DNA of 64,000 nt from Dehalococcoidia bacterium (GCA_016930935.1 JAFGFT010000049.1:2184-66183), one strand, 5' to 3'. Positions 38,813 to 58,298 are shown, numbered from the stretch's first letter. Notes: generated by a model not told the origin, from the letters alone. A program made the numbers and translations.

Positions 38813-38965
38813 CGCTCTTCTCCTTCATCTTCAGTTGCACACTATCGATTGAAGCAGAAATCGGAACACAATGAAAACGACTCATGTTGTGCGTGAGAGA
38901 GACTGCCTGTGTACAATCGCCATTGGGCTGGAAACAAGGCAGCGATTCTTCCCTGGAGGATTGAC

Positions 38966-39505
38966 ATGAAGGTACTGGGAATCTGCGGTTCACCGCGGAA
39001 AGGAAACACGGAGTGGATGCTTGGCAGGGTTCTTGAGTCCGCAAAGGCCGAGGGGGCAGATGTGGAGCTTCTGTTGCTGCGGAACAAGGATATCGAGCTG
39101 TGCAAGGGGTGTATGACATGTGAAGCAGCGGGATCCGGCAATCCGGGTGTGTGTGTAATAAAAGACGACATGGAACCGATTCTGCGCGACATGCTTGCGG
39201 CAGATGCGTTCGTGTTTGGTACTCCCGTCTATTTCTACATGCTCTCCGGCCTTCTGAAGAACTTCATGGATCGAACGATACCGGTCTGGCCAATGCTCAA
39301 GGGAAAGAGGGCGGCAGGTGTGGCAGTTGCCGCGGACACTCTCGCGCTCGCTATCGACAACATTCGAACATACTCAGACCTGCTCCAGTTGGAATGGGTT
39401 GGAGAGGTGGCAGCCATTGCCCGTGACCCTGGGGAAGTGGCGAAGAACGATGAAGTGGCAGCGATGCTGACGGCACTTGGCCGCGACCTCGCTGCGTGCA
39501 GATAG
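38966..39505 (+). CDS. NADPH-dependent FMN reductase / iron-sulfur flavoprotein-like
   Basis: Start moved to ATG 38966 behind GGAGGA. Motifs MKVLGICGSPRKGNT and CKGCMTCE. Confidence 0.8.
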   Translation: MKVLGICGSPRKGNTEWMLGRVLESAKAEGADVELLLLRNKDIELCKGCMTCEAAGSGNPGVCVIKDDMEPILRDMLAADAFVFGTPVYFYMLSGLLKNFMDRTIPVWPMLKGKRAAGVAVAADTLALAIDNIRTYSDLLQLEWVGEVAAIARDPGEVAKNDEVAAMLTALGRDLAACR

Positions 39506-39636: not shown

Positions 39637-40428
39637 GTGGCCATTACGATAGAGACCATCAACCGCATCTCCGGCGAACTCATTCAGGCGGAACAGGTGC
39701 GGAAACCCCTGACATCTTCCGCGTCGTCACGATATCCTGAATTGACACAGGACGATGGGTATGCAATCCAGTTTGCCACCCTTGAGACAAGGCTTGCGGC
39801 CGGTGCCAGGGTAATTGGCGCGAAGGCAGCTTTCACAAGCAAGGCGACACAGCAGCCCTATGGCGTCCATGAGCCCGTTGCGGGACTATTGCTGGACACC
39901 ATCTTTCTTGCGGATGGTGCTGACATAGAGTTCAGTGCATTGATTGCGCCGCGAATCGAGGCGGAAATCGCGTTTGTACTTGATGAAGAATTGCGGGGAC
40001 CCTGTGTGAATGCAAGTCGTGCACTTGCAGCTGTCGCAGGCGTGAGACCTGCCCTGGAGATTGTTGACTGCCGCTTCGAGGGCTGGAAGGTCAAGGCAAC
40101 CGACGTGGCGGCAGACAGTGCGTGCGGAAGCAGAGTGGTGGTGGGAGGTGATATTACGCCCATCGGGGATATGAATCTCAGGCTGCTGGGCGTCATCATA
40201 GAGAAGAACGGCGAACTGGTGTCAACAGGTGCGGGTGCCGCGGCACTGGGGAATCCCGTGGATGTGCTTGTGTGGCTTGCGAACAAGCTTGCCGAATTCG
40301 GCAGAAGCCTTCAGAAGGGTGACACGGTGATTACCGGTTGCCTTGTGCCGGCAGAGCCGTTCATGCGTGGTGACTCATTCACCGCATCTTTCGACCGCCT
40401 GGGCTCCGTCTCGGCCAGGATTGTCTGA
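39637..40428 (+). CDS. 2-keto-4-pentenoate hydratase family (MhpD/HpcG-like)
   Basis: GTG start behind GAAGGAG. GAKAAFTSKATQ, PRIEAEIAFVL, and GDTVITG at the C-terminus. Confidence 0.8.
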   Translation: MAITIETINRISGELIQAEQVRKPLTSSASSRYPELTQDDGYAIQFATLETRLAAGARVIGAKAAFTSKATQQPYGVHEPVAGLLLDTIFLADGADIEFSALIAPRIEAEIAFVLDEELRGPCVNASRALAAVAGVRPALEIVDCRFEGWKVKATDVAADSACGSRVVVGGDITPIGDMNLRLLGVIIEKNGELVSTGAGAAALGNPVDVLVWLANKLAEFGRSLQKGDTVITGCLVPAEPFMRGDSFTASFDRLGSVSARIV

Positions 40429-44146: not shown

Positions 44147-44686
44147 ATGGCAAATCTGATCAGGTGGGAACCGATGGGAATTACGAGTCTGAGACAGGCG
44201 ATGGACGGGTTGCTGGAGGATGCAGTTGTCAGGCCTTCTCGTGCATGGCAGGCCATGAAGCTGGATGAGTTTGCCGTGGACATGTATCAGACCGAAAATG
44301 AAGTGGTTGTGAAGGCACAGTTGCCTGGCATCAAGGCGGAAGATGTGGACATCTCCGTATTGGGCGACATTCTCAGCATCAAGGGAGAATCGTGCGAGGA
44401 GGAGCAGGTCAAGGAGGAGAGTTACTTCAGGAAGGAGATGCGTTGCGGCTCTTTCAGCAGGTCACTGCAGATACCGGTCCCTGTAAGTGTTGACGGTGCC
44501 GAGGCTGTCTTCCAGAATGGGGTGCTCACGTTGACACTGCCCAAGACAGAGGTTGTGAAGCCGAAGCAAGTCCAGGTGAAAACAGCCAAGGAAGCCCCTG
44601 CTGCTGCGAAGCCAGTAACGGAGAAATCCGCCGCGAAGCCGAAGAAGGCAAAGCCGAAGCAGTCAAGCAGTGAGAAGAAGGCATAG
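44147..44686 (+). CDS. Hsp20/alpha-crystallin small heat-shock protein with Lys/Ala/Pro-rich tail
   Basis: TAGGAGGTG SD. Motifs DMYQTENEVVVKAQLPG and QNGVLTLTLPK. Confidence 0.9.
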   Translation: MANLIRWEPMGITSLRQAMDGLLEDAVVRPSRAWQAMKLDEFAVDMYQTENEVVVKAQLPGIKAEDVDISVLGDILSIKGESCEEEQVKEESYFRKEMRCGSFSRSLQIPVPVSVDGAEAVFQNGVLTLTLPKTEVVKPKQVQVKTAKEAPAAAKPVTEKSAAKPKKAKPKQSSSEKKA

Positions 44687-44838: not shown

Positions 44839-47800
44839 TCAGGGTTTCTCTCCACGTCTCGCGAGCGGGACATGAACGGCAGCAACTGTTCCCTTGTGCC
44901 GTTTTCCGGAGATAGTGAACCTCCCGTTGATAGGCCTGAGACGCTCCCGGATGCCCAGGATTCCGAACGAATGAGGAGTCTCTACACCGCCTGAACTGAT
45001 ACCGACGCCATTGTCTGCTATCTCAAGCGTGACAGAGTCTTCGTTCATGGAAAGACTTGCACGAGCCGCGGTTGCCTTTGAGTGGCGGGCGATGTTGGTG
45101 AGCAACTCCTGTAGCACGCGGTAAAGAACGATGGCGATATTCGGCGGGATTTGTTCGTCGTTCTCGGGTAGACTCAGTCCACATTGGATGCCGGTGCGCT
45201 CGACAAAGCTGCCGACCTGCCACTCTATTGCTGCACACAGTCCAAGGTCGTCCAGCATACCCGGCCTGAGTTCAGTCGACAGGTGTCGCACGTCGAGCGC
45301 AAGGCTATCAACCATTGCCGCGACATTGTCGACCTTGCTGATTGCATCCTCCCTGTCCGCCTCCTGTCGCAGTTGCTTCTTGAGGGACATCAGGTCGAAC
45401 TTGAGAGCAGTCAGGCCCTGACCGATGTTGTCATGCAGGTCTCGCGCAAGCGCCGTGCGCTCCTGTTCGCGGGCATCCTGCAGGTGTCCCGAAAGCTCTC
45501 TCAGTCGTTCTCCTGCCAGTCTGAGTTTCTCCTGGGTCTGGCGAAGGTCGGTGATATCGTGCAGGTGCATGAGCACGGTCTGTATCACCCCGTCGTCGTC
45601 GCGCTCAGGAGACATGTGCCAGTCGATGGACCTCTGTCCACCGTGTGTTTGTACGTCCATAGAACCTGACAGCGGCCGGCCTGAGGCGAATACGTGCATG
45701 ATGGCGTCCCGGGTAGCGTTGAGTGTCTCCTGTGACAATCCCGAGAAATCGGACAGGCATCGCCCGACCATGTCCTGGTGTGGCACTCCTGAGAGTCTGT
45801 CGAGTGCAGGATTGACGTACAGCATTCGGCAATCACGGTCCAACCGCGCGACTGTATCATCAAGGTTCTCACTCAAAGTGCGGAACCGTGCCTCACTCTC
45901 TCTTAAGGCCCGCTCTGCGCGCCTCTGTTCCGTGACGTCTCTGGTGGCTCCCTGGATGGCTACTACCTGGCCATCTTCGACCTGGTGCAGGACCATGTCA
46001 CAGATGCACTCCATAGTCGTGCCGTCCCTCTTGAGAAGGCGCACGTCCGCTCCTGTCACCATGCCTCGATTCTCCAACTCTGCGAAAATCGGAGCACCAG
46101 CCTCAGTTCCATCGGCGAAGAGGTTGAACAGGTTCAACTGGTTGACGTCATCACGCGTGTAGCCAAAGAGGTCGAGCCATGCCTGGTTGACCTCAGTAAG
46201 GCGTCCATCAGGTGACATGAGGTAGGTGGCGTCCCTGGAAAGATTGAACAGGGTGTGGAATCGTTTGGCGCTCTCGATGCGTTGTCGCTCCGCCTTCTTC
46301 TGCTCTGAGATATCGCGCATGACAGTCTGGAATCCGAGGATACTCCCGTCAGCGTGATAGCGAACGCTTATCGACCTCACGATATCAATAAGCCTGCCGT
46401 CCTTGGTCTTCACAGGTGACTCATAGTTGTCCAATGACCCGTTGCGGAGGAGGAGTTGTACGAAATCCGGACGCATCTCCGGTGATGGAAAGAGGTTGGC
46501 AGCGTTGAATGAGGCCGTGTCCTCACGCGAGTAGCCAAGGAGATTGAACCAGGCGTCGTTTGCCTCAATGAGATTGCCATCCACTGTGATGAGGCAGATA
46601 GGGGCTATTGATTGGTCGAAGAGCTGTCGATACTGCTGTTCGCGCTCGCGAAGCGCTCGCTCCGCCGCCTTGCTCTCAGTGATGTCGTGAAAGACCGTCT
46701 GGAATCCGATGATGCCGCCATCCGGTGACCTACGCACTGTGACGATTCGGTGACAGTCGAATATGGTACCGTCTTTTCGCCTGAACTTTGATTCGTCCTC
46801 GACGTGGTCCTGGCTCGCGATTGCCTGCAGGAACCTGGCTCTACCATCCGGCTCCACATATGCGTCGCTTGCGGTGTATGACGATATGTCCTCAGGTGTG
46901 TATCCGAACAATCTGAACCATGCGGGGTTTGCCTCGAGCAGGCGGCCGTCCGGCGTGACAAGATTGACGGCATCGACGGATTGCTCAAACAGCTCCCTGT
47001 ACTTCTCTTCGCTCTCCCGCAATGCCTGTTCCGCCGCCTTGCTGTGCGTAATATCACGGAAGACTGTCTGGTAGCCGATGATCTCGCCGTCCGGCGCATG
47101 GCGCGCAATTACCGAGCGAAGAATATGAAGACTCCTGCCGTCTTTCGTCTTCATGGGCACCTCATCGTCCTTGAGGTAGCCCTGCATGGAGATATTGGAG
47201 AGAAAGGTATCCCTGTCCGTCGGGACGGCGTACATGTCTCTTGCATTCAGATGTGCGATGTCCTCCGGCGCATAGCCGAATAGTCTGAACCACGCCGGAT
47301 TGGCCTCAATAACGCGTCCGTCAGGCGCTGCGAGGCTCACTGCATCGAGCGACTGCTCGAACAACTCACGATACTTTCGCTCACTGTTTTGAAGGGACTG
47401 CTCCGCTTCCACGCGGGCGGTTATCTCGACAAGTGAACAGGTGGCTCCCATGAACACACCGTTCTCGAAGAGAGGTCTACTTGATGAGCGGACATGCCGT
47501 ACTCTTCCTTCGGCGTCGGATACCCGAAAATCGGACGGCTCCATAATGCCCAGGACGAGGCGCTCCCATGACTGTGCAATGGAGGGAAGGTCCTCGGGAT
47601 GTACGAATTCGGTGAAGCGTCTTCCTACTATGTCTTCAGCTCGTATGCCGGAGAGCGCTTCGACTTGTGGGCTGATGAAGGTGACTACGCCGTCCGCATC
47701 AAGTGCATACACCACGTCGTTGATGGAGTTGACGAGAGCGCGGTACTTCTCTTCTGACGCCCTCAGTTCCAGCTCCATACGTTTTGTGTCGGTGATATCC

Positions 47801-49251
47801 CGCACCACGCTGACGAAGAGTGGCCCGCCATCACTTTCAAAGGTCTTTGCCCTTACCGCTACGTCTATTGGCGAACCGTCACTGCGGCGGTGGCGCGTCT
47901 CAAAGGAGAACTCTCCATGCTCGATCATGGCGCTGATGCGAGCAGGAACCTGGTCCGCGAAGTCGGGCGCGTTGAGGTCCTTCACTGTCATGGAGAGCAG
48001 CGCGTCTCTTGAGAAGCCTGTCATAGCGGATGCGGCTTCGTTGGCGTACAGGATTTGACCTTCATCATTAATGAGGTAGATTGCGTCGTTCGCGTTGTCG
48101 AGCAGCATGCCTCGTAAACGCAACTCTTCATCGCTATGCTTGCGCTCGGTGATATCTCTTGCCACACCCACCATACCGACAAGGGTGCCGGTGTTGTCGC
48201 GCAACCCTTTGACGATGTTCTCGGTCCATACGGTGGAGCCATTCTTGTGGTAGTACTCGACCTCGACTGTGAGTGCCCTGGCAGGGTCGGCATCGCCGAG
48301 TGTCTCGCGATGCAGTTCCTGTTTCAGTGCGTCCATTATGGTTGCAGCGGATTCAGGCGTTACCATGTCCTGCAACCCCTGTCGCATACGCTCTTCGAGT
48401 GAGAACCCGAGCACCCGTTCCATTGAAGGGCTCACGTACGTCGTGTTGAAGTTGAGGTCCATCGTCCAGAAGATGTCGGCGATATTGTCTGTGACGAGTC
48501 GTAGTCGTTGTTCAGACTGGCGCAACTCCTGTTCAGACTTCACACGCTCTGAGATATCACGGGCCACGGAGAGAATCAGAGGTCGGTTGTCGAGCATCAT
48601 CCGTGTTGCCCTGACCTCGATGGGGAACTGCGAACCATCCTTGCGGAATGTAAGGAGTTCAAATCTGGCGTGTCCGTCGCGCCGGAGCGTGGTGCCGATC
48701 TCTTCCCAGCGTTGTGCCTGGTCTGGAGCTTCAAGGTCGTGCAGAGTCGCATGGGCAAGCTCATCTCGTGTATAGCCTCTTGATATGGCTGTCGCCTCGT
48801 TGAAATAGAGGATGTTCCCCTGAGGGTCATGGACGATGATGCAGTCCGTGGCGAGGTCGAGCAGCCTGTCCCTGATGACCAGGTCATTCTGTTCATGTTT
48901 CTGAGAGGTGATGTCGATCGACGTGCCTATGAGTCCGACGGCCTTGCCGTGATCGTCCAGAATCGGTGCTTTGTCGGTGAGCACGAAGCGAAGTCCATCA
49001 GGCCCATTATAGGTCTCCGTGATTCCGAGTCTTGGCGAGCTAGAGTTGATGACCTCTCGGTCGACTCGGGCTGATTCAGGGCCGAGTTCTCCCAGTAGTT
49101 CCTCTGATGACGTTCCGATGACTTGGTCCAGTGTGACGCCGAAATTGTCACAGAAGGCCTTGTTGGCGCTCACTATATTGAGATTGCGGTCCTTGACGTA
49201 GACCATCGTAGGGAGGGCGTCAAGAGCCGGGTGTAGCTCAAATAACTCCAT
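44839..49251 (-). CDS. sensor histidine kinase with ten PAS domains, HisKA_3 + HATPase_c
   Basis: 1470 aa, no TM segment. Phospho-acceptor context ARDLHDNIGQGLTAL (NarX/DegS-type dimerisation domain). ATPase N-box LQELLTNIARHS and G-box DNGVGI. Confidence 0.9.
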   Translation of the reverse strand: MELFELHPALDALPTMVYVKDRNLNIVSANKAFCDNFGVTLDQVIGTSSEELLGELGPESARVDREVINSSSPRLGITETYNGPDGLRFVLTDKAPILDDHGKAVGLIGTSIDITSQKHEQNDLVIRDRLLDLATDCIIVHDPQGNILYFNEATAISRGYTRDELAHATLHDLEAPDQAQRWEEIGTTLRRDGHARFELLTFRKDGSQFPIEVRATRMMLDNRPLILSVARDISERVKSEQELRQSEQRLRLVTDNIADIFWTMDLNFNTTYVSPSMERVLGFSLEERMRQGLQDMVTPESAATIMDALKQELHRETLGDADPARALTVEVEYYHKNGSTVWTENIVKGLRDNTGTLVGMVGVARDITERKHSDEELRLRGMLLDNANDAIYLINDEGQILYANEAASAMTGFSRDALLSMTVKDLNAPDFADQVPARISAMIEHGEFSFETRHRRSDGSPIDVAVRAKTFESDGGPLFVSVVRDITDTKRMELELRASEEKYRALVNSINDVVYALDADGVVTFISPQVEALSGIRAEDIVGRRFTEFVHPEDLPSIAQSWERLVLGIMEPSDFRVSDAEGRVRHVRSSSRPLFENGVFMGATCSLVEITARVEAEQSLQNSERKYRELFEQSLDAVSLAAPDGRVIEANPAWFRLFGYAPEDIAHLNARDMYAVPTDRDTFLSNISMQGYLKDDEVPMKTKDGRSLHILRSVIARHAPDGEIIGYQTVFRDITHSKAAEQALRESEEKYRELFEQSVDAVNLVTPDGRLLEANPAWFRLFGYTPEDISSYTASDAYVEPDGRARFLQAIASQDHVEDESKFRRKDGTIFDCHRIVTVRRSPDGGIIGFQTVFHDITESKAAERALREREQQYRQLFDQSIAPICLITVDGNLIEANDAWFNLLGYSREDTASFNAANLFPSPEMRPDFVQLLLRNGSLDNYESPVKTKDGRLIDIVRSISVRYHADGSILGFQTVMRDISEQKKAERQRIESAKRFHTLFNLSRDATYLMSPDGRLTEVNQAWLDLFGYTRDDVNQLNLFNLFADGTEAGAPIFAELENRGMVTGADVRLLKRDGTTMECICDMVLHQVEDGQVVAIQGATRDVTEQRRAERALRESEARFRTLSENLDDTVARLDRDCRMLYVNPALDRLSGVPHQDMVGRCLSDFSGLSQETLNATRDAIMHVFASGRPLSGSMDVQTHGGQRSIDWHMSPERDDDGVIQTVLMHLHDITDLRQTQEKLRLAGERLRELSGHLQDAREQERTALARDLHDNIGQGLTALKFDLMSLKKQLRQEADREDAISKVDNVAAMVDSLALDVRHLSTELRPGMLDDLGLCAAIEWQVGSFVERTGIQCGLSLPENDEQIPPNIAIVLYRVLQELLTNIARHSKATAARASLSMNEDSVTLEIADNGVGISSGGVETPHSFGILGIRERLRPINGRFTISGKRHKGTVAAVHVPLARRGEKP
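45532..47382 (-). repeat. five tandem 123-125-aa PAS modules (aa 624-1240) inside the kinase
   Basis: Module heads are ERKYRELFEQSLDAV, EEKYRELFEQSVDAV, EQQYRQLFDQSIAPI, AKRFHTLFNLSRDAT, EARFRTLSENLDDTV. The first two also share ANPAWFRLFGY(A/T)PEDI. Confidence 0.8.
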
Positions 49252-49458: not shown

Positions 49459-50142
49459 CTACGTATCCGAGGGTAGAGTCTCTTTCCTGCGCAGCTTGCG
49501 GTAGTAGGAGTGCGAGAGGTACAAGCCAGCCGCCGGATTGTGGCCGAAAACCCTGTCTTTGGCGATGAGTACCGTGGTGGGCGCCTCTGCGTACTTGAAG
49601 AACAGTGAATCGTGTCCCACACAAAGGCCGACCAGTACATTGAACTCAGTATGTGACTCGTTCAGAATCTTCGCCTGGGCGATGGGGTTACACATGGTCT
49701 CCCATTTGCCTGACCCCTTGATCTTCTGTTCTTCCGTAATCCCGATGGTCTCCTTGGGCATGCCGCCGACCTGGCAGCACACGGACACGACTTCAAATCC
49801 CCTGCGCGTCAGGATTTCATCCAGTATGCCCGCTTCTTTCCTCAGACCGGCACAGAATGCGACACCGAGCCTCTTGTAGCCCATCTTCTTTGCGAACTGC
49901 GCTGTCTCCTCAACCCGTGGGTTTCGTGGCGTCAGTCCTTCGGGCAGGCGCATGTAGCACTCGAACTCCTGAATCGATGCCTGCCTGGCAAACTCCGCCA
50001 CATCCGGCTTCGCGTACTCTGTTCTCACTTCTTCGAGTGTCGAGTGCATCGTTTTCGTAGGGCAGTTGTCGGGTCCCTGGTCGGAGAATTCTGACTCGCA
50101 GACGCGTTTGTCGCAATTCGCGCAGGTGCTGTACTGTTCCAA
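49459..50142 (-). CDS. DUF1847-family metal-binding protein
   Basis: TTG start 5 nt after AGGAGGA. Cys-rich N-terminus CANCDKRVC...CP and later CCQVGG, LCVGHD. Confidence 0.7.
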   Translation of the reverse strand: MEQYSTCANCDKRVCESEFSDQGPDNCPTKTMHSTLEEVRTEYAKPDVAEFARQASIQEFECYMRLPEGLTPRNPRVEETAQFAKKMGYKRLGVAFCAGLRKEAGILDEILTRRGFEVVSVCCQVGGMPKETIGITEEQKIKGSGKWETMCNPIAQAKILNESHTEFNVLVGLCVGHDSLFFKYAEAPTTVLIAKDRVFGHNPAAGLYLSHSYYRKLRRKETLPSDT

Positions 50143-50228
50143 GATTGTCCTCCTGATTGCTCACACGGGGCGCTCGTGGCCAGGCGTGAGTGATATGGCG
50201 CGTCGTCGGTGTCGGGAACCGTTGGAAG

Positions 50229-51200
50229 TCAATCGAGGGTGAGCCTTCGCACAAAGAAGCGCTGCTCCCCGTATATGACTTCGCGTAGCTTCCCCTGCCC
50301 CACCATCCACTCGGCGAGGTCCGGTTCAGCGCCTGACTTCTGCAGAAATGCTGCCACCTGGTCGGAGCGCATGGGGTGGACGGACGTGATGGCGAGCAGG
50401 TCATCTTCGGTGTTGCCCTTCGAATCGAAGGTTGTGCCCTCGTAGCCGGTCAGCAGTTCGACCCGTTCGACTGCAGCGCTGAATATCTGGTGCGCACGAA
50501 CAAGGGCGTCCTCTGCCGGTATCTCAACGCCATGGACTGCAGGCGGGCGGATGGGCACTGACAGATATGCAGTGTGTGGCTGTAGCCACTTGAGGAAAGC
50601 TGACAGGGGCAAGAGGTCGTCGGCGGAATCGTTCAGGTCTTTCACGAGCATGGTCTCGGTGTCGAGTTCGCCTTTGTACTCATGGGCAAACTGCAGTACG
50701 CCGTCGAGCACTGTTTCAAGTCTCAGGTCGCCGTGAGGCCGGTCGATGCGACGCCACGTGTCATGCCGTACTGCATCCACCTTGACGCTCACCCTGTCGG
50801 CACCCATGAGCGCACGTCGTACGTCAGGGTCGTGAAGCAACGACGCGTTCGTGATGACTGCAACCGGTATGCCGAACTGGCTGAGAAGTTGTACTTGGTC
50901 GCCGAGGTGCGCTTCGAGCGTTGGCTCTCCATCGGGAACGAAGGCCAGGTAGTCAATTGGTGTGCCATTCTTGCGCAGTTTCTCCAGTGTCCACTTCACA
51001 TCGGCATGCAGTTCGCCGGGGTCACAGTGAGGCGTGCGGCGTATCGTCAAGTGGTCGGTGGTGCCGAGCTGACAGTACACACAGGAATAAGTGCAGGTCT
51101 TTGGAGCGATGGCGTTGATGCCGAGGCTACGCCCGAATCGTCTCGACGGCACGGGGCCGAATGTCCGTGCGGGTTCTGCAGAGAATGACTGATTGTTCAT
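50229..51200 (-). CDS. radical SAM protein (COG0731/Tyw1-related type)
   Basis: FGPVPSRRFGRSLGIN followed by CTYSCVYC (CxxxCxxC). Confidence 0.8.
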   Translation of the reverse strand: MNNQSFSAEPARTFGPVPSRRFGRSLGINAIAPKTCTYSCVYCQLGTTDHLTIRRTPHCDPGELHADVKWTLEKLRKNGTPIDYLAFVPDGEPTLEAHLGDQVQLLSQFGIPVAVITNASLLHDPDVRRALMGADRVSVKVDAVRHDTWRRIDRPHGDLRLETVLDGVLQFAHEYKGELDTETMLVKDLNDSADDLLPLSAFLKWLQPHTAYLSVPIRPPAVHGVEIPAEDALVRAHQIFSAAVERVELLTGYEGTTFDSKGNTEDDLLAITSVHPMRSDQVAAFLQKSGAEPDLAEWMVGQGKLREVIYGEQRFFVRRLTLD

Positions 51201-51276
51201 GCTTCACCTGGCAATGGCCGGGCGAAGTCTAGCACGTGAATGCAGCGGAGACCATGGTTGCCGTGGATGTGCGCGT

Positions 51277-51531
51277 TCACTTCGGGGGTATGAACGGGTC
51301 CTTGCACTTTGGCCAGGGTATCCCATACTTCGCCCCGCGGTACTGGTACAGAACACACCGGTCGAGCATGCCACCCCTGCGGCGCTTCTGTTCGTTGAAC
51401 AGCGCTTCAGGGTCGGCCTCGAACATCTGTTCGGGAGTCTCGATGCCGAGGGCGAGCAACTCCCGGGCCGTCTTCTCTCCTACGTTCGGCAACAACTGAA
51501 GCTTCTTCAGCGTCTCCTGCTCGGAATGCAC
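51277..51531 (-). CDS. helix-hairpin-helix protein (Cdd1 / mitomycin-resistance-like family)
   Basis: GTG start 2 nt after the IscU-DUF59 stop (TAATCGTG). LLPNVGEKTARELLALGI is an HhH motif. Confidence 0.65.
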   Translation of the reverse strand: MHSEQETLKKLQLLPNVGEKTARELLALGIETPEQMFEADPEALFNEQKRRRGGMLDRCVLYQYRGAKYGIPWPKCKDPFIPPK

Positions 51532-51533
51532 GA

Positions 51534-52169
51534 TTATTCTGTGAACCTCACCTCAACTTCATTCACGTCCCACAGGGGCGATATCTTCTCCATGACTTCC
51601 TCATGAATGTTGTGTGCGAACTGGTTCGTGGCGGGAAGGTCTATGGCGACGGTCACCTTGCCCTTCTCAATCATGATGCCCGTCACGAGTTCGGTCTTGA
51701 CAAGGTCGAGTCCCACAAGCGGGTTCATGACCTTCTTGAGTCTGCGTCGGACCTCTTCCACGGTGGTTGGCTTCCTCTCCTTGACCATGCCGTGGGTTTC
51801 CTCGTAGTTCTCGATTGCGGCGCGCAGACCGTCAACGGCGAGAACAGAGCAATGGGCCTTGATGGCGGGCAATCCACCCAGTTCTTCGGATGCCTGTTTC
51901 CAGGAAATGTCCTTTGCCTCATCGAGGGTCTTGCCTTTGGCGAGTTCCGTGATGATAGAGCCGGTTGCGATATTTGAGGCACAACCGTACGATTCGAACT
52001 TGATATCCTCAATCTTTTTCGTCTCGTCGTTCACCTTCAGGTAGACACTCACCATGTCACCGCAGGCAGGGCTGCCCTCGGTTGCTTTTGCGTTGGAGTC
52101 ATCCAATTTGCCCACATTTCTGGGGTTCTTGAAGTGGTCGAGTACTCTCTCAGTGTACGGAAACGTCAT
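51534..52169 (-). CDS. IscU/NifU-type Fe-S scaffold fused to a DUF59 (MIP18/SufT-like) domain
   Basis: Start moved to ATG 52169 behind AGGAGG. IscU cysteines are in SPACGDM, SYGCASN, KAHCSV. The C-terminal 95 aa VRRRLKKVMNPLVGLDLV...VTVAIDL are DUF59-like. Confidence 0.8.
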   Translation of the reverse strand: MTFPYTERVLDHFKNPRNVGKLDDSNAKATEGSPACGDMVSVYLKVNDETKKIEDIKFESYGCASNIATGSIITELAKGKTLDEAKDISWKQASEELGGLPAIKAHCSVLAVDGLRAAIENYEETHGMVKERKPTTVEEVRRRLKKVMNPLVGLDLVKTELVTGIMIEKGKVTVAIDLPATNQFAHNIHEEVMEKISPLWDVNEVEVRFTE

Positions 52170-52257
52170 CTGGCGTCCTCCTTCTTCCGCTGAAGTGGCA
52201 CGAAGCGCCACCTGTTCTGCGGCGTCGATTGCTTCGCTCCGGCATAGCGGCCACAAC

Positions 52258-52920
52258 CTATTTTAGCGCAGCCAGAACCTCCGCTGCGTGCTGCACGCCC
52301 AATGGGGGGCTCATGAGTACGGGAACCGGTGTCTCTCCGAGGTCGGGCTTGAGCGCAAGCATACTTCCCTGTGCGCAGACTACCACATCAACTTTCTGCG
52401 CGAGCTTACGGATGGAGGCGATGACCATTTCGTTGTGCTTCTTGCGGTCACCGGCGATGAGTCTTTCGAATGCGCCGCTGGTGATTTCCTCCGTCACAGA
52501 GACGGTCTTGCCAAGTCTTTCAGCGGTGCTCTTGATGAGACGGACAGTCGGACCCATCGTGGTGGCAAGGGTGGCGACGACACCGATGCGGGGCCCTGTC
52601 TGGCAGGAGATTTCGGCCATTCGTTCATCCACTTTGACGACAGGCACCTTGACCATCTTCGCTGCCATCGTCGCGACTTCTCCGACGGATGAACACTGGT
52701 TGAAGATGAGGTCGGCTCCGGATGCCTCTGCCTGCATGTAGTATTCGCACATTCTCCGTGTGACGCCCGGCGTGACGCCGCCATTCGCGAGTACCTCGGG
52801 CAGAAGGCTGTCATCCACGATGTTTCGTACGGTGACGTCCGGCGCATACTCCTGGAAGAGCGTGTTCAAATCGTTCAACGACACACCGCTGGTGTGGACT
52901 ATGAAGACTGTCTTTCCCAT
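52258..52920 (-). CDS. Asp/Glu/hydantoin racemase-family protein (paralogue A)
   Basis: 220 aa. Two conserved Cys at positions 76 (NQCSS) and 182 (VCAQGS), as in two-thiol racemases. Confidence 0.7.
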   Translation of the reverse strand: MGKTVFIVHTSGVSLNDLNTLFQEYAPDVTVRNIVDDSLLPEVLANGGVTPGVTRRMCEYYMQAEASGADLIFNQCSSVGEVATMAAKMVKVPVVKVDERMAEISCQTGPRIGVVATLATTMGPTVRLIKSTAERLGKTVSVTEEITSGAFERLIAGDRKKHNEMVIASIRKLAQKVDVVVCAQGSMLALKPDLGETPVPVLMSPPLGVQHAAEVLAALK

Positions 52921-53017
52921 GTTCCTTCCTCCTCAATCCGAAAGTCTGCGTATATCTGCGCCGCGGCTGTCCTGAGCGAGCCCGTCGTTGTGAGGGGTGC
53001 CCCGGATTTCTTTCTGC

Positions 53018-53680
53018 CTACTTCAACGTGGCCAGAACGTCGGCGGCGTGCTTGATTCCAAGTGGTGGACTCATCAGGACGGGGACGGGAGTCTCTCCAA
53101 GCTCCGGCTGCAATGCCAGCATACTGCCCTGGGCGCAGACGACGACATCGACAGTGTTCATCAACTCTCGAATCGCAGCGAGGACAATCCTGTTGTGGCC
53201 CTCCTTGTCGCCGACGATGATGCGCTCAAATGCGTCTGCACAGAGAACCTCTGTGACAGTTGCCTCCGTGCCAAGCCGTGCTGCTGTTCTCATGATGAGG
53301 CGAACGGTTGGCCCCATCGTTGAGGATGCGGTGGCGACCACGCCGATACGGCTGCCGGTGTGGCAGGCAACCTCTGCCATGCGCTCATCTATTTTCACGA
53401 GAGGAATCGTTACCATGCTTCGTGCGATGTCTGCTGCTTCGCCCACAGAGGAGCACTGGTTGAGGATGAGGTCTGCGCCTGCCATCTGTGCCTGCACTGC
53501 GTACGTGCAGTAGCGTCGCAGTACCCCCGGAGTGACACCTCCATTGGCCAGTACCTCGGGCAGCATGCTGTCGTCGATGATATTTCTGACCGTGACGTCG
53601 GGGGCAATCTCCCCGAACAAGCGCATGAGGTCTTCTCCGGCAAGCCTGTTGGTGTGGATGATGAATACTGTCCTGGACAT
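53018..53680 (-). CDS. Asp/Glu/hydantoin racemase-family protein (paralogue B)
   Basis: Start moved to ATG 53680 (MSRTVFIIHTN). Collinear with paralogue A at roughly two-thirds identity by eye. Same NQCSS and VCAQGS motifs. Confidence 0.7.
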   Translation of the reverse strand: MSRTVFIIHTNRLAGEDLMRLFGEIAPDVTVRNIIDDSMLPEVLANGGVTPGVLRRYCTYAVQAQMAGADLILNQCSSVGEAADIARSMVTIPLVKIDERMAEVACHTGSRIGVVATASSTMGPTVRLIMRTAARLGTEATVTEVLCADAFERIIVGDKEGHNRIVLAAIRELMNTVDVVVCAQGSMLALQPELGETPVPVLMSPPLGIKHAADVLATLK

Positions 53681-53769
53681 CGTCTTCTCCCTTGTCCTGT
53701 TCTGTTTTGCACTCCTGCACAGGGCTCTATGTACGTCCATATTGCGCTGAGCCGCAGAGGGATACCATC

Positions 53770-54945
53770 CTACGCTTTGTCCTCACGAGGAACGAGAGGA
53801 CTGATCTTGCGCAGGTCACTGACAACCTGGGAAACCGCATCGACAATACCGTCGACTTCCTCCGTTGTGTTGAATCTGCCGAAAGTGAATCGTATCGAAC
53901 CGTGCGCCCGTTCATGGTCGCCGCCGATGCCGAAAATGACGTGGCTTCCTTCAAGGGAGCGAGAGAAGCACGCGGAGCCGGTGCTGACCGCGAAGCCCCG
54001 CATGTCGAGATGCAGGGTGATGGACTCTCCCTCCACATAGTGGAACGTGACATTCGCGTTCTGAGGTGTGCGGTTGGTGGGGTGCCCGTTGAGCGTGGAA
54101 TGAGGCACCTCGGCAAGCAGCCGTTGTATCGTACGGTCTCTCAAGGCCGCCAACGCCTCGTTTTCCTCAGGAGTGACAAGCGCCGCTGCCTTCGCGAATC
54201 CTACCGCCGAGGGTATGTTCTCCAGACCTGCACGAAGGTCGTATTCCTGGAAGCCGCCGTCCATCCACTTCGCGATAGGGGTCTTCTTTCTTATGAACAG
54301 TCCACCTATTCCACGTGGACCGTGAATGGTGTGGGCTGCGACGCTCATCAGGTCAATCGGCACAGTGTTCATGTCCACCGGCACACGGGTGAAGGAATGC
54401 GTGGCGTCTGTGTGGAAGAGCGTACCTTTCTCTTTGCAGATCTTCGCGATTGTCGAGATGTCCTGTATCGTGCCTATCTCCTGGTTGGCGTGCTGTATGG
54501 ACACGAGTATGGTTTCCTTCGTGATGGCCTTCTGGAGTGCCTCAAGGTCCACTAATCCGTCACCGTCGACAGGCAGATAGGTGACCTTGAAACCCTGCCG
54601 TTCAAGCGCCTGTGCGCTGTGGAGCACGGGGAAATCCTCTATCTTCGAGACGATGATGTGTGTGCCCTTCTTCTGGCCGAGCGCGAGCGCCACTCCTTTC
54701 AGTGCCATGTTGCTCGATTCGGTGCTGCCCGAGGTGAAGATGAACTCCTCAGGTGACGCTCCTATCCGCGCTGCAAGTGAACCTCGAGCACTGTCAAGCG
54801 CTTCGCGGGATTCGATTCCGAGCGAGTATCCGAACTCTGAGGTGGCAACGGCGTAGGTTTCGAAGAAGTAGGGAGTCATGGCCTCGAGGACACGCTCATC
54901 AAGCCGTGTTGCTGCCGCGTTATCCAGGTAGGTGCACTTCTGCAT
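53770..54945 (-). CDS. IscS/NifS-type class V aminotransferase-fold protein lacking the PLP-binding lysine
   Basis: YLDNAAATRLDERV, QHANQEIG, FHTDATH, and active-site loop STGSAC all align with IscS. The SGHK motif reads SVAAHT (Thr206, codon ACC at 54330-54328). Confidence 0.85.
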   Translation of the reverse strand: MQKCTYLDNAAATRLDERVLEAMTPYFFETYAVATSEFGYSLGIESREALDSARGSLAARIGASPEEFIFTSGSTESSNMALKGVALALGQKKGTHIIVSKIEDFPVLHSAQALERQGFKVTYLPVDGDGLVDLEALQKAITKETILVSIQHANQEIGTIQDISTIAKICKEKGTLFHTDATHSFTRVPVDMNTVPIDLMSVAAHTIHGPRGIGGLFIRKKTPIAKWMDGGFQEYDLRAGLENIPSAVGFAKAAALVTPEENEALAALRDRTIQRLLAEVPHSTLNGHPTNRTPQNANVTFHYVEGESITLHLDMRGFAVSTGSACFSRSLEGSHVIFGIGGDHERAHGSIRFTFGRFNTTEEVDGIVDAVSQVVSDLRKISPLVPREDKA

Positions 54946-54969
54946 ATTGTCCTCCCTCTCGATTGCCGG

Positions 54970-55404
54970 CTAGATAAATAGAGTAATACTGGATTCCCGT
55001 GCTTCCTGGATGTATGAACCCACGGCGCAGTAATCTGTGATGATGTCGTCGCGCAGGTCTTCCTTCTTGATGCCCATGAGTTCCATCGTCATGTCGCAGG
55101 CCATCAGCTTTCCGCCCAGCTCAATAAAATCGTCGAGCATCCTGTTCATGCTCGCCACGTTGGCTCGCTTCATACGTTGCTTTATCATCCATTTGCCAAG
55201 GCCGAGCATGTGCATCCTGGACAGGGGGCCTTTGTCGAGTTGGCCCTTCTTGAGGCACTGCAGGCCCCAGAAAGTGAAGAACATGGACGCTTCCATTCCC
55301 ATGGCAAGCGCTCCGTTGGCGATGATGAGTGCGCTGAAGACCTTGTCGAATTCGCCGCTCTGGACGACTATCGTCGCTTTCTCTTCCATTCTCCCTCCCC
55401 TCAT
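54970..55404 (-). CDS. DsrE/DsrF-like (DrsE_2-type) sulfur-relay family protein
   Basis: ATG 55404 overlaps the TusA-like stop (ATGA); an alternative ATG at 55389 follows GGAGGGAGA. About 140 aa, with IVVQSGEFDKVFSALIIANGA and KLMACDMTMELMG. Confidence 0.65.
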   Translation of the reverse strand: MRGGRMEEKATIVVQSGEFDKVFSALIIANGALAMGMEASMFFTFWGLQCLKKGQLDKGPLSRMHMLGLGKWMIKQRMKRANVASMNRMLDDFIELGGKLMACDMTMELMGIKKEDLRDDIITDYCAVGSYIQEARESSITLFI

Positions 55405-55622
55405 CTCCGAATGCGGATAGTCCAGCGTTCTCCATCTTCCTTGACGTCGAGGACTTCCAGCCCCATGGCTCTCGCCGCCATGGGAATCTCTTTCTTTGAG
55501 GAAGGATGGGTGCCCACAACCTCCACCACATCGCCGATGGCGGCCTTTCTCAGCGCCTTCCGGGTTTCCACCAGCGGTACGGGGCAGTTCTGCCCAGCGC
55601 AGTCAACCTTGATCTCTGCCAT
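55401..55622 (-). CDS. TusA/SirA-like sulfurtransferase
   Basis: ATG 55622 is 7 nt after GGAGG (the track start GTG 55628 abuts the SD). Active-site motif DCAGQNCPVPL (CPxP). Confidence 0.8.
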   Translation of the reverse strand: MAEIKVDCAGQNCPVPLVETRKALRKAAIGDVVEVVGTHPSSKKEIPMAARAMGLEVLDVKEDGERWTIRIRR

Positions 55623-55917
55623 TGACACACCTCCGTCCCATCAATGATACCCCAGCACGCAGGGATATGCATTGCCACAAGGATGATTGTGTTCCCTTCC
55701 CGCAGGCGAACTGTCACTCCATTCGAAGTTCGTCACTGGCTTCGGACTGCGCTGCAAAGGAGATATGCACACGTGTCGTACGGGAAACCGTCACGCCTCG
55801 CCACTGCACGAGAGCTTTACAGCGCAACAGGCGATATCCACTACCGAGGGCCTGCCTCCGGCCGATGTCTCCTTTGGCAGCCCCTCGCTTCAGTCAAGAT
55901 GTGTGCTCCAGGTTCTT

Positions 55918-56892
55918 CTACTTGTCGTAGACCTGGCGGTTGATGCAGTTCGGTATGCGTTCTCCCCGCATGCCGATAATTAGTTGTTCTATGGCCATGG
56001 TCCACATCTTTCTACGAGTCTCTATGACTGCGCTGCCGATATGGGGCATGATGAGGATGTTGTCCAGTGTGAAGAGCGGGCTGTCGAGAGGGAGTGGCTC
56101 TGTGCTGGTGACATCGATTGCGGCGCGCAATATCTTGCCTGTCTTCAGCGCGTCGTAGAGTGCTTTATCGTTCACGACGGGTCCGCGCGCCACGTTCACG
56201 AGGATGCTGGTGGGTTTCATCACCGCGAACTCGTCCTTGCCCATCAGGTTTCGGGTCTGGTCCGTCAGGGGAACGGTCAGGATGACGAAATCGGACTCCG
56301 CGAGGAGACCGTGAAGCGTGTCGCGGTATTCAGCACCAAGAAGCGATTCGGCGGTCAGGTCTCGATTACGGTTGTGATAGAGCACGCGCATGTTGAATCC
56401 GTTCGCACGTTTGGCGACGTGGGAGCCTATATGGCCCATCCCGACGATACCGAGCGTCTTGTTATTGACATCGACCCCCGGGAGATCGAGGTGTGCGTGT
56501 GCTTTCCAGCGTCCATCGCGAGCGAACTGCTGTCCTTCCACGACCCTGCGTGCAGCGGCCAGAAGCAGCGCAAAGCCGAGGTCGGCGGTGGTCTCCGTGA
56601 GCACGTATGGCGTATGACCGACCGGGATGCCACGTCGTGTAGCCTCGGCAAGGTCAATATGGTCGCAGCCGTCTCCCATGTTGCTGATGCATTTCAGGTC
56701 AGGCATAGCGTCGAAGACCTCGGCATTGATGCGATTGGCAACGGTCATGATTCCCTGAAGTCCCGGCGCCTCGCGCAACATGGCCTCTACCGGCATCTCT
56801 TCCACACCTTCCCATACCTTGTAGTCATGGATGCCGTCGAGACGCTTCGTGATGTCCCTGAAGAAGTTCTTGCAGATGTAGACGTTGGCCAT
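55918..56892 (-). CDS. D-isomer-specific 2-hydroxyacid dehydrogenase (glyoxylate/hydroxypyruvate reductase-like)
   Basis: Start moved to ATG 56892 behind AGGAGGA. NAD motif GIVGMGHIGSHVA; catalytic region ARGPVV ... MPHIGSA. Confidence 0.85.
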   Translation of the reverse strand: MANVYICKNFFRDITKRLDGIHDYKVWEGVEEMPVEAMLREAPGLQGIMTVANRINAEVFDAMPDLKCISNMGDGCDHIDLAEATRRGIPVGHTPYVLTETTADLGFALLLAAARRVVEGQQFARDGRWKAHAHLDLPGVDVNNKTLGIVGMGHIGSHVAKRANGFNMRVLYHNRNRDLTAESLLGAEYRDTLHGLLAESDFVILTVPLTDQTRNLMGKDEFAVMKPTSILVNVARGPVVNDKALYDALKTGKILRAAIDVTSTEPLPLDSPLFTLDNILIMPHIGSAVIETRRKMWTMAIEQLIIGMRGERIPNCINRQVYDK

Positions 56893-57096
56893 CATTCCTC
56901 CTTGCTGTGCGCGCACGTCCCGCAGGTGAGACGCCTGCCACGTGGAAGTTACCCGTGCGTACTTGCCATGTCAATGGGTTTCAAGTGGCTGGACGGGGTG
57001 ACCAAAGCTGAGGGCAATTCGTCCAAATGTAATGAAAGGAGGAAGCCAAAGCCTCCTCCTTTCACTACCGTCACTCTTGACATCGCGGGGATATCT

Positions 57097-57657
57097 TCAG
57101 GCCTTTGCCTGCTGCTCACGCAACTCGTTCAACTCGTCGAGCAGTCCCTGTTCGAAGATGACCTCCACGGTCCACTTGCATGCCCTGCCGACCACCTCTG
57201 GACTGACCCATGCATGAGCGCCCAGTTCATCCGCCTTCCCGTAGTCGTCTTTGTCAGAAAGGAAGAACGGACGTCCCATAATCTTCGTCTCGATGTCGCG
57301 GCAGATGACCGTGCCGTACTCGTCGATGAACTTCTTGTGTAGAGCGCGGCCAGCCTCGAAGCATTTGAACCTGTTCGTCTCTTCTGTCACGAAGTTGTCC
57401 AGCGCGCGTCCCTTCAGCATTCCGAGAATCATCAGCCCGCCGTCGTAGGCGCCGCAACCGGCATCGCCAAACAGCGCACCGCCACCTGCGAGTCCTGTGG
57501 CAGCTTTGAAGATTTCCGGTGACGATATATCGAGGGCCTCGAAAAGTCCTGCCAGAGACGTCTGGCTGCAGCATCTCTTCTCAAGCTGGGCCTTGTGCCC
57601 TGAGTCGTATGCTTTCTGTGCAATCTCTTCTTTCTGGTCAGGGGTTATCTTCTTCAT
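57097..57657 (-). CDS. C_GCAxxG_C_C-family protein
   Basis: Start moved to ATG 57657 behind GAGGAGGG. Motifs RCCSQTSL and GDAGCGAYDGG. Confidence 0.75.
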   Translation of the reverse strand: MKKITPDQKEEIAQKAYDSGHKAQLEKRCCSQTSLAGLFEALDISSPEIFKAATGLAGGGALFGDAGCGAYDGGLMILGMLKGRALDNFVTEETNRFKCFEAGRALHKKFIDEYGTVICRDIETKIMGRPFFLSDKDDYGKADELGAHAWVSPEVVGRACKWTVEVIFEQGLLDELNELREQQAKA

Positions 57658-58298
57658 GGTGTCCCTCCTCATTGAAGCTGCTTTGCGGCGGATGGCGGCT
57701 GTACAGGGGCTACGTGGAATCAGTCTTGTGGAGCGCACCTGCCATTGTGGTGAGAGTGTAGTCTGAGCGACGTACAGGGTCAATGGATGTGAGTAACCCT
57801 CTGCTGGCTGTATGGTGATGTTGGCAGTCAGTTGGGAGTGCTGTGTCTTGCAGCGCCTCATGGGTAGCTATTGACAAAGGCACTGTCCCCTCCTACTCTG
57901 ACCCAGCGACGCCTCGGGCGTGGCCTTCAATAACACCGCATTCCGCGTGACGTGATAGCCGATAGGAGAGGAGCAGTCGCAGGATGGCGCGGTACCACGA
58001 GGAATCCTCCTCAATCCTGCTGATACTGGCCCATGTTGACCATGCGTGCGGCGATGTCATTGCATCCGTCATTCAACGTCTGTGTGGCCTCGCGGTGCAG
58101 AACGTGAATCTGGTCCCCTCATTCATCAAGAAAGGTCATCCTTGCTTCCGCGTTCTCCGCAGTCATGGCCACAGAGCCGGGACGTGCTGCACCGACTGAA
58201 ACAGCAGAATGTGGAGTGTGCGGTGGCCGCAGGCAGCCAGGTAGGCGTGTTGACAATGTAGTGACCGTGAAGGGCTTCAGGTACATGGAGGAAAGGTA

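Follow-up and report, generated by a model that had tools for sequence, protein, structure and literature searches.

How can an iron-sulfur (Fe-S) scaffold protein obtain its sulfur when the desulfurase homologue encoded beside it has lost the lysine of its pyridoxal phosphate (PLP) site? This question is raised by a row of nine genes on the minus strand, at positions 49459-55622 of a 64,000-nt stretch of DNA from a Dehalococcoidia bacterium (GCA_016930935.1, JAFGFT010000049.1:2184-66183), the whole of which we call the window. The row encodes TusA and a DsrE-type protein, an IscS homologue, two racemase-fold paralogues, an IscU-type scaffold fused to a DUF59 domain, a small helix-hairpin-helix (HhH) protein, a radical S-adenosylmethionine (SAM) enzyme and a DUF1847 protein. 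Sulfur supply to Fe-S scaffolds without an active desulfurase is an open question in strict anaerobes, as the cases of Archaeoglobus fulgidus IscS, Methanosarcina acetivorans IscS1 and the methanogen SMS system illustrate (PMC7585200, PMC8918507, PMC13066941). The A. fulgidus IscS (Asp199) is inactive; in the model proposed for it, one of its cysteines ligates the [2Fe-2S] cluster on IscU and the sulfur comes from sulfide (PMC8918507). The lysine is likewise missing from M. acetivorans IscS1, and what guides sulfide to the Fe-S machinery has been described as unknown (PMC7585200). Sulfide can be used by MIS systems (PMC13066941), and TusA and DsrE-family proteins are established persulfide carriers (PMC11094781, PMC3397948).

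A preliminary description of the window had suggested that the row could be an uncharacterised sulfur or Fe-S module, distinguished by the racemase genes that stand between the desulfurase-like and scaffold genes. Our analysis upholds one part of this and not the other. A four-gene core, consisting of tusA, dsrE2-like, iscS-like and iscU::DUF59, is conserved across Dehalococcoidia, but the nine genes do not make up a single unit, nor are the racemases what defines it. On balance, and with somewhat better than even confidence, we read the core as a minimal Fe-S assembly unit of MIS/ISC type that would draw its sulfur from a persulfide relay or from sulfide, and in which the IscS-like protein would no longer make persulfide from cysteine, and we read the racemase-fold, HhH, radical SAM and DUF1847 genes as additions made in a sub-lineage.

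A conserved four-gene core

All nine open reading frames (ORFs) are present where the preliminary description had placed them, co-directional on the minus strand, and each of the nine passes the Pfam gathering threshold of the family it had been assigned to; for subfamilies we used the curated NCBIfam cutoffs. Start codons were re-placed by ribosome-binding sites (RBSs) and orthologue lengths. The core begins with a TusA-family sulfur carrier of 73 aa (55401..55622, minus strand; PF01206, E = 2.2e-22), followed by a DsrE2/DsrE3-type putative sulfur carrier of 139 aa (54970..55389, minus strand; PF13686, E = 6.5e-37) and by the IscS/MisS homologue, which has 391 aa and is predicted to be PLP-less (53770..54945, minus strand; Aminotran_5, PF00266, E = 4.7e-68). 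Its fourth gene encodes the IscU::DUF59 fusion of 211 aa (51534..52169, minus strand; NifU_N, PF01592, E = 3.5e-43, and FeS_assembly_P, PF01883, E = 1.7e-12). The best matches to the window proteins come from Dehalococcoidia or Dehalococcoidales metagenome-assembled genomes.

We surveyed genomes by searching a racemase-fold alignment against one genome per GTDB species and then running tblastn with the nine window proteins against the loci, and we surveyed metagenomes by searching contigs with an alignment of the IscS-like protein, which gave at least 534 relatives, with 80 loci kept. In 11 Dehalococcoidia genomes, at 74-87% identity, the gene order is tusA, dsrE2-like, iscS-like, one or two racemase-fold genes and IscU::DUF59, and this row occurs in none of the other roughly 66 genome loci that have a racemase homologue. 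Among the metagenome loci, IscU::DUF59 lies directly 3' of iscS-like in 60 of the 80 and a racemase gene takes that place in 11; six of the remaining contigs end after the iscS-like gene and three loci are uninformative. On the other side, TusA and DsrE2 directly precede iscS-like in 54 of 55 loci, the count being restricted to metagenome loci with enough upstream sequence. The earlier proposal had turned on whether synteny reaches beyond the IscS-IscU pair, and by these counts it does so clearly. Gaps inside the core measure 5-33 nt, and the flanks of loci without a racemase gene are heterogeneous; since the core genes stay together where the flanks change, we take the four-gene core to be the stable unit.

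Two loci, L083 (from the complete Dehalococcoidales genome CP070842.1) and L084, carry the core without a racemase gene, with 15 nt between iscS-like and IscU::DUF59. In both, the core adjoins a divergent operon with the order Rrf2, CysK (PALP), CysE (Hexapep), NIL, IscS, IscU (137 aa) and FdhD (L083 9848-14888; L084 9837-15345), an operon also found at L108 3351-8400. The canonical IscS beside the core keeps every PLP residue, the lysine included ('SAHKLYGPKG'), and HcyBio (PF01837) and Thi4 genes lie upstream in the CP070842.1 locus, which makes it a local cluster of sulfur-incorporation genes. Judged by these residues, some genomes at least also hold a normal cysteine-dependent IscS-IscU pair. 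Within the 64-kb window there is no lysine-bearing canonical IscS or IscU, and the ISC accessory genes HscBA, Fdx, IscA and IscX are absent from the nine genes and from the flanking ORFs scanned. A variant order appears at L095 502-2680 and L162 7001-9100, where the IscS-like gene is followed by IscU::DUF59 and then by TusA downstream, with no DsrE2 match at either place.

The IscS homologue

The best solved matches to the IscS-like protein, at E of about 1e-99, are the cysteine desulfurase 9wep and A. fulgidus IscS2 (4eb5, 4r5f), the latter standing among the top matches at E = 7.7e-99. The missing PLP lysine, already pointed out in the preliminary description, is replaced by threonine, 'AAHTIHGP' aligning to 'SAHKMYGP' of PDB 9wep. 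Moreover, the PLP-stacking histidine has become aspartate ('IEDFPVLH'), the glutamine of 'HTDAVQ' has become histidine, and the threonine of 'RAGTEN' has become leucine or isoleucine. These four changes in the PLP site, together with the loop 'STGSACFS', are the same or nearly the same in 11 species-level genome orthologues and in L083 and L084.

Could this simply be a gene in decay? The mobile-loop cysteine, C326, is kept in 93 of 93 IscS-like sequences, and the ratio of nonsynonymous to synonymous substitution rates (dN/dS) is 0.06-0.09. We conclude from these two facts that the IscS-like protein is selected and not decaying; by its residues it is a conserved pseudo-desulfurase. Invariant in the same set are His183, His208 and Asp104, all gained in the old PLP pocket, and C170 is kept in 93/93; speculatively, these four residues could make up a candidate metal site in that pocket.

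To place this loss we considered the 150 nearest clusters at 50% identity (P0361-P0510). The PLP lysine is kept in 129 of them and lost in about 21 (~14%), with T, L, M, S, D, P and other residues in its place, and the loop cysteine is kept in all IscS-family rows that have a residue at that position (148 of 151 rows). Loss of the lysine is thus recurrent, and inactive IscS paralogues look to be common and to have evolved repeatedly. At 50% identity the Dehalococcoidia type makes up a cluster of its own (representative 67% identical, next cluster at most 53%), and its loss of the lysine looks independent of that in the A. fulgidus type. A lysine-less pattern seen among the clusters, 'HASND', resembles the A. 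fulgidus type.

Carriers and scaffold

The two proteins encoded upstream of the IscS homologue have the features expected of sulfur carriers. TusA scores 79 bits against PF01206 (cutoff 28.6) and has its cysteine in a CPVP motif ('NCPVP'); this residue, C13, is kept in 67/67 orthologues. The NCBIfam equivalog cutoffs for TusA, YedF and YeeD are not reached. A selenium role for TusA was considered and rejected, the top NCBIfam match being YedF at 47 bits (cutoff 79), with no other selenium gene present. The second carrier scores 127 bits against PF13686 (cutoff 25), and its cysteine C98, in 'ACDMTME', is kept in 74/74 sequences and aligns with the cysteine of the nearest solved structures, 2qs7 and 3pnx ('putative sulfurtransferase DsrE'). 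Because it falls short of the curated DsrE2 equivalog NF047629 (70 bits, cutoff 210), we use the name DsrE2-like only.

In the scaffold, the cluster ligands C36, C63, H106 and C107 are kept in 80/80 sequences, and D38 stands in 'ACGD'. The DUF59 domain (PF01883, 47.9 bits, cutoff 23.5) covers residues 167-236 of the 240-aa ORF, and this C-terminal domain contains no cysteine at all ('...VTVAIDLPATNQFAHNIHEEV...').

How sulfur might reach the scaffold

How, then, could these four proteins act together? We propose that sulfane sulfur would move as a protein persulfide from TusA and the DsrE2-like protein to Cys326 of the IscS-like protein, to IscU directly, or to both, free sulfide being the other possible source. 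Sulfide, polysulfide or thiosulfate, whether from the environment or from metabolism, could charge the carriers, and so could a separate active desulfurase, for instance a neighbouring canonical IscS such as that in L083. The IscS-like dimer would hold IscU and give the fourth cluster ligand, as has been proposed for A. fulgidus IscS, and the DUF59 domain would assist in handing the cluster on. Since the partners of the carriers are here a presumably inactive IscS homologue and an Fe-S scaffold, sulfur would have to flow towards IscS and IscU.

Several points weigh against this proposal. The DUF59 domain is, from its sequence, without what we take to be the usual DUF59 cysteine, the expected region reading 'DLPATNQFAH'. 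In the Tus relay of E. coli, sulfur passes from IscS to TusA and on to the DsrE-type protein, and the direction we propose is the opposite one. We infer the loss of the PLP cofactor from four substitutions, and A. fulgidus IscS still binds pyridoxamine phosphate or PLP without the lysine (PMC8918507). The synteny downstream of the nine genes is common to the sub-lineage, and part of the conservation of the long row thus reflects relatedness. Finally, the racemase genes stand inside the operon, have been kept there through saturating divergence, have been duplicated, and are represented by the A or the B copy in every member of the sub-lineage, which argues for a selected link.

A different use of the same four proteins has to be weighed as well. 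The core might deliver sulfur for another thio-product (tRNA thiolation, molybdopterin or FdhD, thiamine, homocysteine), or serve as a sulfide or persulfide buffer, with IscU and the IscS-like protein as sulfur stations. The classical roles of TusA and DsrE-type proteins are in tRNA thiolation, Moco synthesis and dissimilatory sulfur relays (PMC13066941, PMC11094781); the operon adjoins HcyBio and Thi4 in L083, L084, L099 and L102 and FdhD in L083, L084, L102, L103 and L108; and in CP070842.1 a canonical IscS-IscU pair shares the genome with the core. However, IscU has the full Cys/Cys/His-Cys ligand set in all 80 sequences and is fused to an Fe-S assembly domain, the HcyBio, Thi4 and FdhD context is confined to few loci while other flanks vary, and the operon contains no thiolation enzyme (MnmA, ThiI, MoeB or similar). 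We regard this alternative as unlikely.

The racemase-fold genes

What are two racemase-fold genes doing between iscS-like and iscU? RacA (53018..53680, minus strand; 220 aa; PF01177, 49 bits, cutoff 31) and its tandem duplicate RacB (52258..52920, minus strand; 220 aa; 59 bits, same cutoff) are paralogues with 68% identity. Both keep C76 and C182, the counterparts of C82 and C194 in the alignment with Pyrococcus horikoshii aspartate racemase, in agreement with their earlier description as tandem two-cysteine paralogues. The AlphaFold2 model of RacB has a predicted local distance difference test score (pLDDT) of 92, and Foldseek matches it to hydantoin, Asp, Glu and allantoin racemases with template modelling scores of 0.7-0.78, E down to 3.6e-9 and 13-19% identity. 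No curated racemase subfamily is reached (NCBIfam asp_race 17 bits, cutoff 93; CuyB 16 bits, cutoff 190).

The placement of these genes is real and is conserved in the sub-lineage, but it represents a lineage-specific insertion and not the essence of the module. Racemase genes are confined to loci whose IscS-like protein has 77-93% identity to that of the window; the 60 loci with IscU::DUF59 immediately 3' of iscS-like lack them, and so does one complete genome. In a neighbour-joining tree of 100 family members, made without bootstrap, the copies in Fe-S context (32/32) form one clade with A-type and B-type branches. This pattern fits a gene that was acquired once and duplicated in tandem, after which one copy or the other was lost in places; among single-copy loci, L015 and L044 keep A and L007, L010 and L011 keep B. 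At L007 (9747-10000), the 248-nt gap between iscS-like and RacB holds a remnant of a racemase start ('KTVFIINT...'), consistent with decay of the A copy.

The relatives of the inserted genes lie in quite another setting. The identity of sister sequences to RacB reaches 71%, a little above that between RacA and RacB, and at some loci the sister gene comes directly after, or overlaps, a DUF1537-type kinase gene (SBD_N/NBD_C), an arrangement found for racemase homologues in 21/68 loci among L003-L082 (L012 8570-10657, L024 3965-6036 and L003 8591-10675 being three of them). Other neighbours of the sisters are DHDPS, transaldolase-like, enolase-superfamily, FAH, aldehyde dehydrogenase, KDPG-aldolase and HpcH-aldolase genes, and no sulfur or Fe-S gene is present in these neighbourhoods. 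By their gene content they are neighbourhoods of acid-sugar catabolism, and the family, whose signature motifs are 'NQCSSVGE' and 'AQGSM', may outside the Fe-S context supply a candidate step of tetronate-type catabolism.

At the level of residues, C76 and C182 are present in 32/32 Fe-S-context copies; C182 is leucine in 36 of the 68 other family members, so the wider family includes single-cysteine enzymes. Four cysteines are conserved in the Fe-S-context copies, and the idea that they are Fe-S ligands, or an Fe-S-specific adaptation, was rejected, since the acid-sugar sisters largely share them (C76, C106 and C182 in 9/9, C58 in 7/9). In the wider racemase-fold family C58, C106 and C182 vary. 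Only one strongly conserved family position is changed in the Fe-S-context clade, T203M in 'PVL[T/M]SP'.

The racemase genes have dN/dS of 0.06-0.19 and strong RBSs, and the spacers around them vary from 19 to 97 nt and hold nothing conserved except the RBS, which gives no sign of a shared regulatory RNA or of an internal promoter there. The genes are probably functional, being under selection, and they are probably co-transcribed, given the strong RBSs and the lack of any conserved promoter or terminator in the spacers. We read them as a putative small-carboxylate isomerase or epimerase gene inserted into the operon: one acid-sugar-linked racemase-fold gene would have entered between iscS-like and iscU and would then have been tandem-duplicated. 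Any biochemical link of the racemases, or of the downstream additions described below, to Fe-S assembly is more likely incidental or regulatory than mechanistic.

Could the racemases nevertheless be an integral part, recruited to replace the lost PLP chemistry? They would then be two-cysteine, cofactor-independent sulfur mobilisers or persulfide reducers, taking sulfur from cysteine or from a mercapto-, sulfo- or oxo-acid and loading TusA and DsrE2 or the cysteine of the IscS-like protein. In favour of recruitment, they stand between iscS-like and iscU throughout the sub-lineage, in genomes and metagenome loci alike, the copies form one duplicated clade of which at least one copy is always retained, the genes are under selection with both catalytic-position cysteines kept, T203M is specific to the clade in an otherwise invariant motif, and the protein has a weak, sub-threshold likeness to the cysteate racemase CuyB. 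However, the core does without these genes in 60 loci and a complete genome; T203M apart, their conserved positions are those of the acid-sugar homologues, which have no sulfur genes nearby; and we found no gene fusion or other independent link between racemases and Fe-S proteins. Taken together, this makes recruitment a doubtful explanation. Still harder to credit is its specific form, in which a captured acid-sugar racemase-fold enzyme would provide PLP-independent sulfur entry, mobilising sulfur or persulfide by, for example, beta-elimination or isomerisation of a mercapto-, sulfo- or oxo-acid or of cysteine, and feeding TusA/DsrE2 and IscS-IscU::DUF59.

Downstream additions and gene layout

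Three further genes follow the core in the window: a small HhH protein (Cdd1/TfoX_C-like, 84 aa; 51277..51531, minus strand; PF11731, E = 4.4e-16), a radical SAM enzyme (323 aa; 50229..51200, minus strand; PF04055, 33.5 bits, cutoff 29.5) and a Cys-rich DUF1847 protein (227 aa, TTG start; 49459..50142, minus strand; PF08901, E = 1.4e-60), the last a loosely attached neighbour. These three genes stand next to the core only in the racemase-bearing sub-lineage, and variably so: all are present in L005, L016, L019, L044, L086, L091 and L092, and also in L093 (cut at the IscS homologue), some in L010, L011, L015 and L096, and none in L006 and L008, and in L001 and L007 a radical SAM gene or its remnant is the sole addition. 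DUF1847 homologues at about 70% identity are stand-alone genes in unrelated contexts.

In 13 of 15 related HhH-bearing loci only 1-2 nt separate the IscU::DUF59 stop from the start of the HhH gene (exactly 2 nt in 12), and because this gap is so widely kept we take the HhH gene to be tightly coupled to IscU::DUF59. The radical SAM enzyme carries the CxxxCxxC motif as 'CTYSCVYC', has only sub-threshold NCBIfam matches (viperin-like, MoaA) and falls into no curated subfamily; among solved structures it has no relative. Going by domain type, the HhH protein, perhaps with the radical SAM enzyme, may be a nucleic-acid-directed pair and a client for a [4Fe-4S] cluster. For DUF1847, the AlphaFold2 model is of low confidence (pLDDT 67.5), with weak generic Rossmann-like matches; we found no fold match at E <=1e-3, no solved relative and no mention in open-access text. 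Its 227-aa form is the more likely one, as homologues measure 221-232 aa and the TTG at 50142 has a GGAGG in front of it; a public call for DUF1847 (P0243) has 196 aa and starts at an internal methionine. All three genes would have been appended downstream in the sub-lineage of the window; they are probably functional additions, being under purifying selection, and co-expressed with the operon.

With corrected starts (ATG at 55389 for the DsrE-like gene, 53680 for RacA, 52169 for IscU::DUF59), the gaps from tusA to DUF1847 measure 11, 24, 89, 97, 88, 2, 76 and 86 nt. The ATGA overlap of tusA and the DsrE-like gene given in the preliminary description can be read in the sequence at 55404, but translation probably does not begin there; that description was right about the 2 nt between IscU and HhH and about the 207 nt that separate the DUF1847 gene from the next gene, a PAS kinase. 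Purifying selection acts on all nine genes (dN/dS 0.04-0.25). Synonymous sites are saturated between species (dS 0.6-2.3) and the gene order is still kept. The G+C content across this part of the window is uniform, at about 0.55-0.58.

Upstream of tusA, which has an RBS GGAGG at 55630-55634, lies a promoter-like element (55644..55671, minus strand) with a -35-like TGCATA (55666-55671), a 16-nt spacer and a -10-like TATCAT (55644-55649), the latter 21 nt upstream of the ATG. A TAYNAT box occurs at equal distance from tusA in 16 of 18 racemase-bearing loci. The TATCAT box, a putative promoter, fits tusA as the first gene of the operon. A second, weaker candidate is a possible extended -10 box, TGcTAGACT (51226..51234, minus strand), 25 nt before the radical SAM ATG; similar strings, 'GTGCTAnACT' or 'GTGTTACACT', recur in L086, L092 and L096, and a separate transcription start may lie there. 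A generic promoter and terminator scan gave counts equal to the shuffled expectation and did not flag the tusA element, and on the coding strand it placed no terminator-like site in any gap. An Rfam scan of 44-60 kb returned two sub-threshold chance matches and nothing else, and a repeat search found nothing beyond the paralogy of the two racemase genes.

Beyond the nine genes, the downstream neighbour is a multi-PAS histidine kinase of 1470 aa (window 44839-49251, minus strand). A PAS kinase 29-41% identical to it follows the row in L005, L006, L008, L015, L016, L019 and L044, and the same loci have, downstream, homologues of window 44147-44686, 39637-40428 (FAH), 38909-39505 and 34013-35188 (DnaJ). 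On the upstream side a D-2-hydroxyacid dehydrogenase gene (PF02826/PF00389; window 55918-56916, minus strand) lies 295 nt from tusA on the same strand, preceded by a gene for a C_GCAxxG_C_C putative redox protein (window 57097-57861, minus strand); neither is kept upstream of the operon in related loci. Near the racemase homologues in L003, L018 and L022 there are 2-hydroxyacid dehydrogenases 32-37% identical to that of the window.

That the long row is nothing but shared ancestry, unrelated co-directional transcription units with no meaning beyond IscS-IscU, is quite improbable: the racemase-bearing loci do share downstream PAS kinase, FAH and DnaJ genes, gaps of 76-97 nt flank the added genes, a -10 box may precede the radical SAM gene and DUF1847 stands free elsewhere, but the core keeps its 5-33-nt gaps and persists amid unrelated flanks in dozens of loci, the HhH gene is held at 1-2 nt from IscU::DUF59 and no gap has a terminator-like site, and related loci have the row in common but not its upstream neighbours.

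Significance and comparison with known systems

In open-access text we found no description of a TusA and PF13686 carrier tied to a lysine-less IscS, nor of an IscU::DUF59 fusion, and the core module is apparently undescribed so far. This type of operon, which combines a presumably inactive IscS homologue with IscU and two persulfide-carrier families, occurs in more than 500 candidate metagenome stretches, and its set of four proteins makes desulfurase-independent sulfur supply experimentally approachable. The racemase insertion offers a clear natural example of how an operon grows and points to an uncharacterised, DUF1537-kinase-linked enzyme family; the striking composition of the nine genes is largely operon accretion. 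If the core should be an ordinary redundant copy of IscS-IscU, the finding is a minor one.

How does the operon compare with systems already described? The racemase-fold proteins share with the Asp/Glu/hydantoin racemase superfamily the fold and the two cysteines at catalytic positions, and belong to an uncharacterised branch otherwise found in acid-sugar clusters. As with the SufT/DUF59 factors, a DUF59 domain is associated with Fe-S assembly, here through fusion to the scaffold, consistent with auxiliary cluster handling; it differs from them in being Cys-less and fused to IscU, and not free-standing or fused to an Mrp/NBP35 ATPase. With the Tus and DsrE relays (E. coli IscS-TusA-TusBCD; rhodanese-TusA-DsrE3 to sHdr) the core shares a CPxP TusA paired with a conserved-cysteine protein of the DsrE superfamily. 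Unlike those relays, the operon has no active desulfurase, rhodanese, DsrC/TusE, Hdr or tRNA-thiolation enzyme.

Measured against MIS/ISC systems, an IscS-type gene stands beside an IscU-type gene, with two racemase genes intervening in the window, and the mobile-loop cysteine and the IscU ligands (three Cys, Asp, His) are in place. The residues of a PLP-dependent desulfurase appear to be missing, which is the same exception as in A. fulgidus IscS (PMC8918507). The closest parallels are accordingly A. fulgidus IscS2-IscU (4eb5, 4hvk, 4r5f) and M. acetivorans IscS1, in which an IscS fold without the lysine keeps its mobile cysteine and is found beside IscU. In the window, however, the lysine is replaced by threonine and not by aspartate, and three more PLP-site positions are replaced, whereas A. 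fulgidus keeps the stacking histidine. Moreover, what distinguishes the present system from the A. fulgidus pair is its membership of a fixed operon that also encodes TusA and a DsrE2-like protein, an IscU that carries a C-terminal DUF59 domain, and a bacterial host, the Dehalococcoidia.

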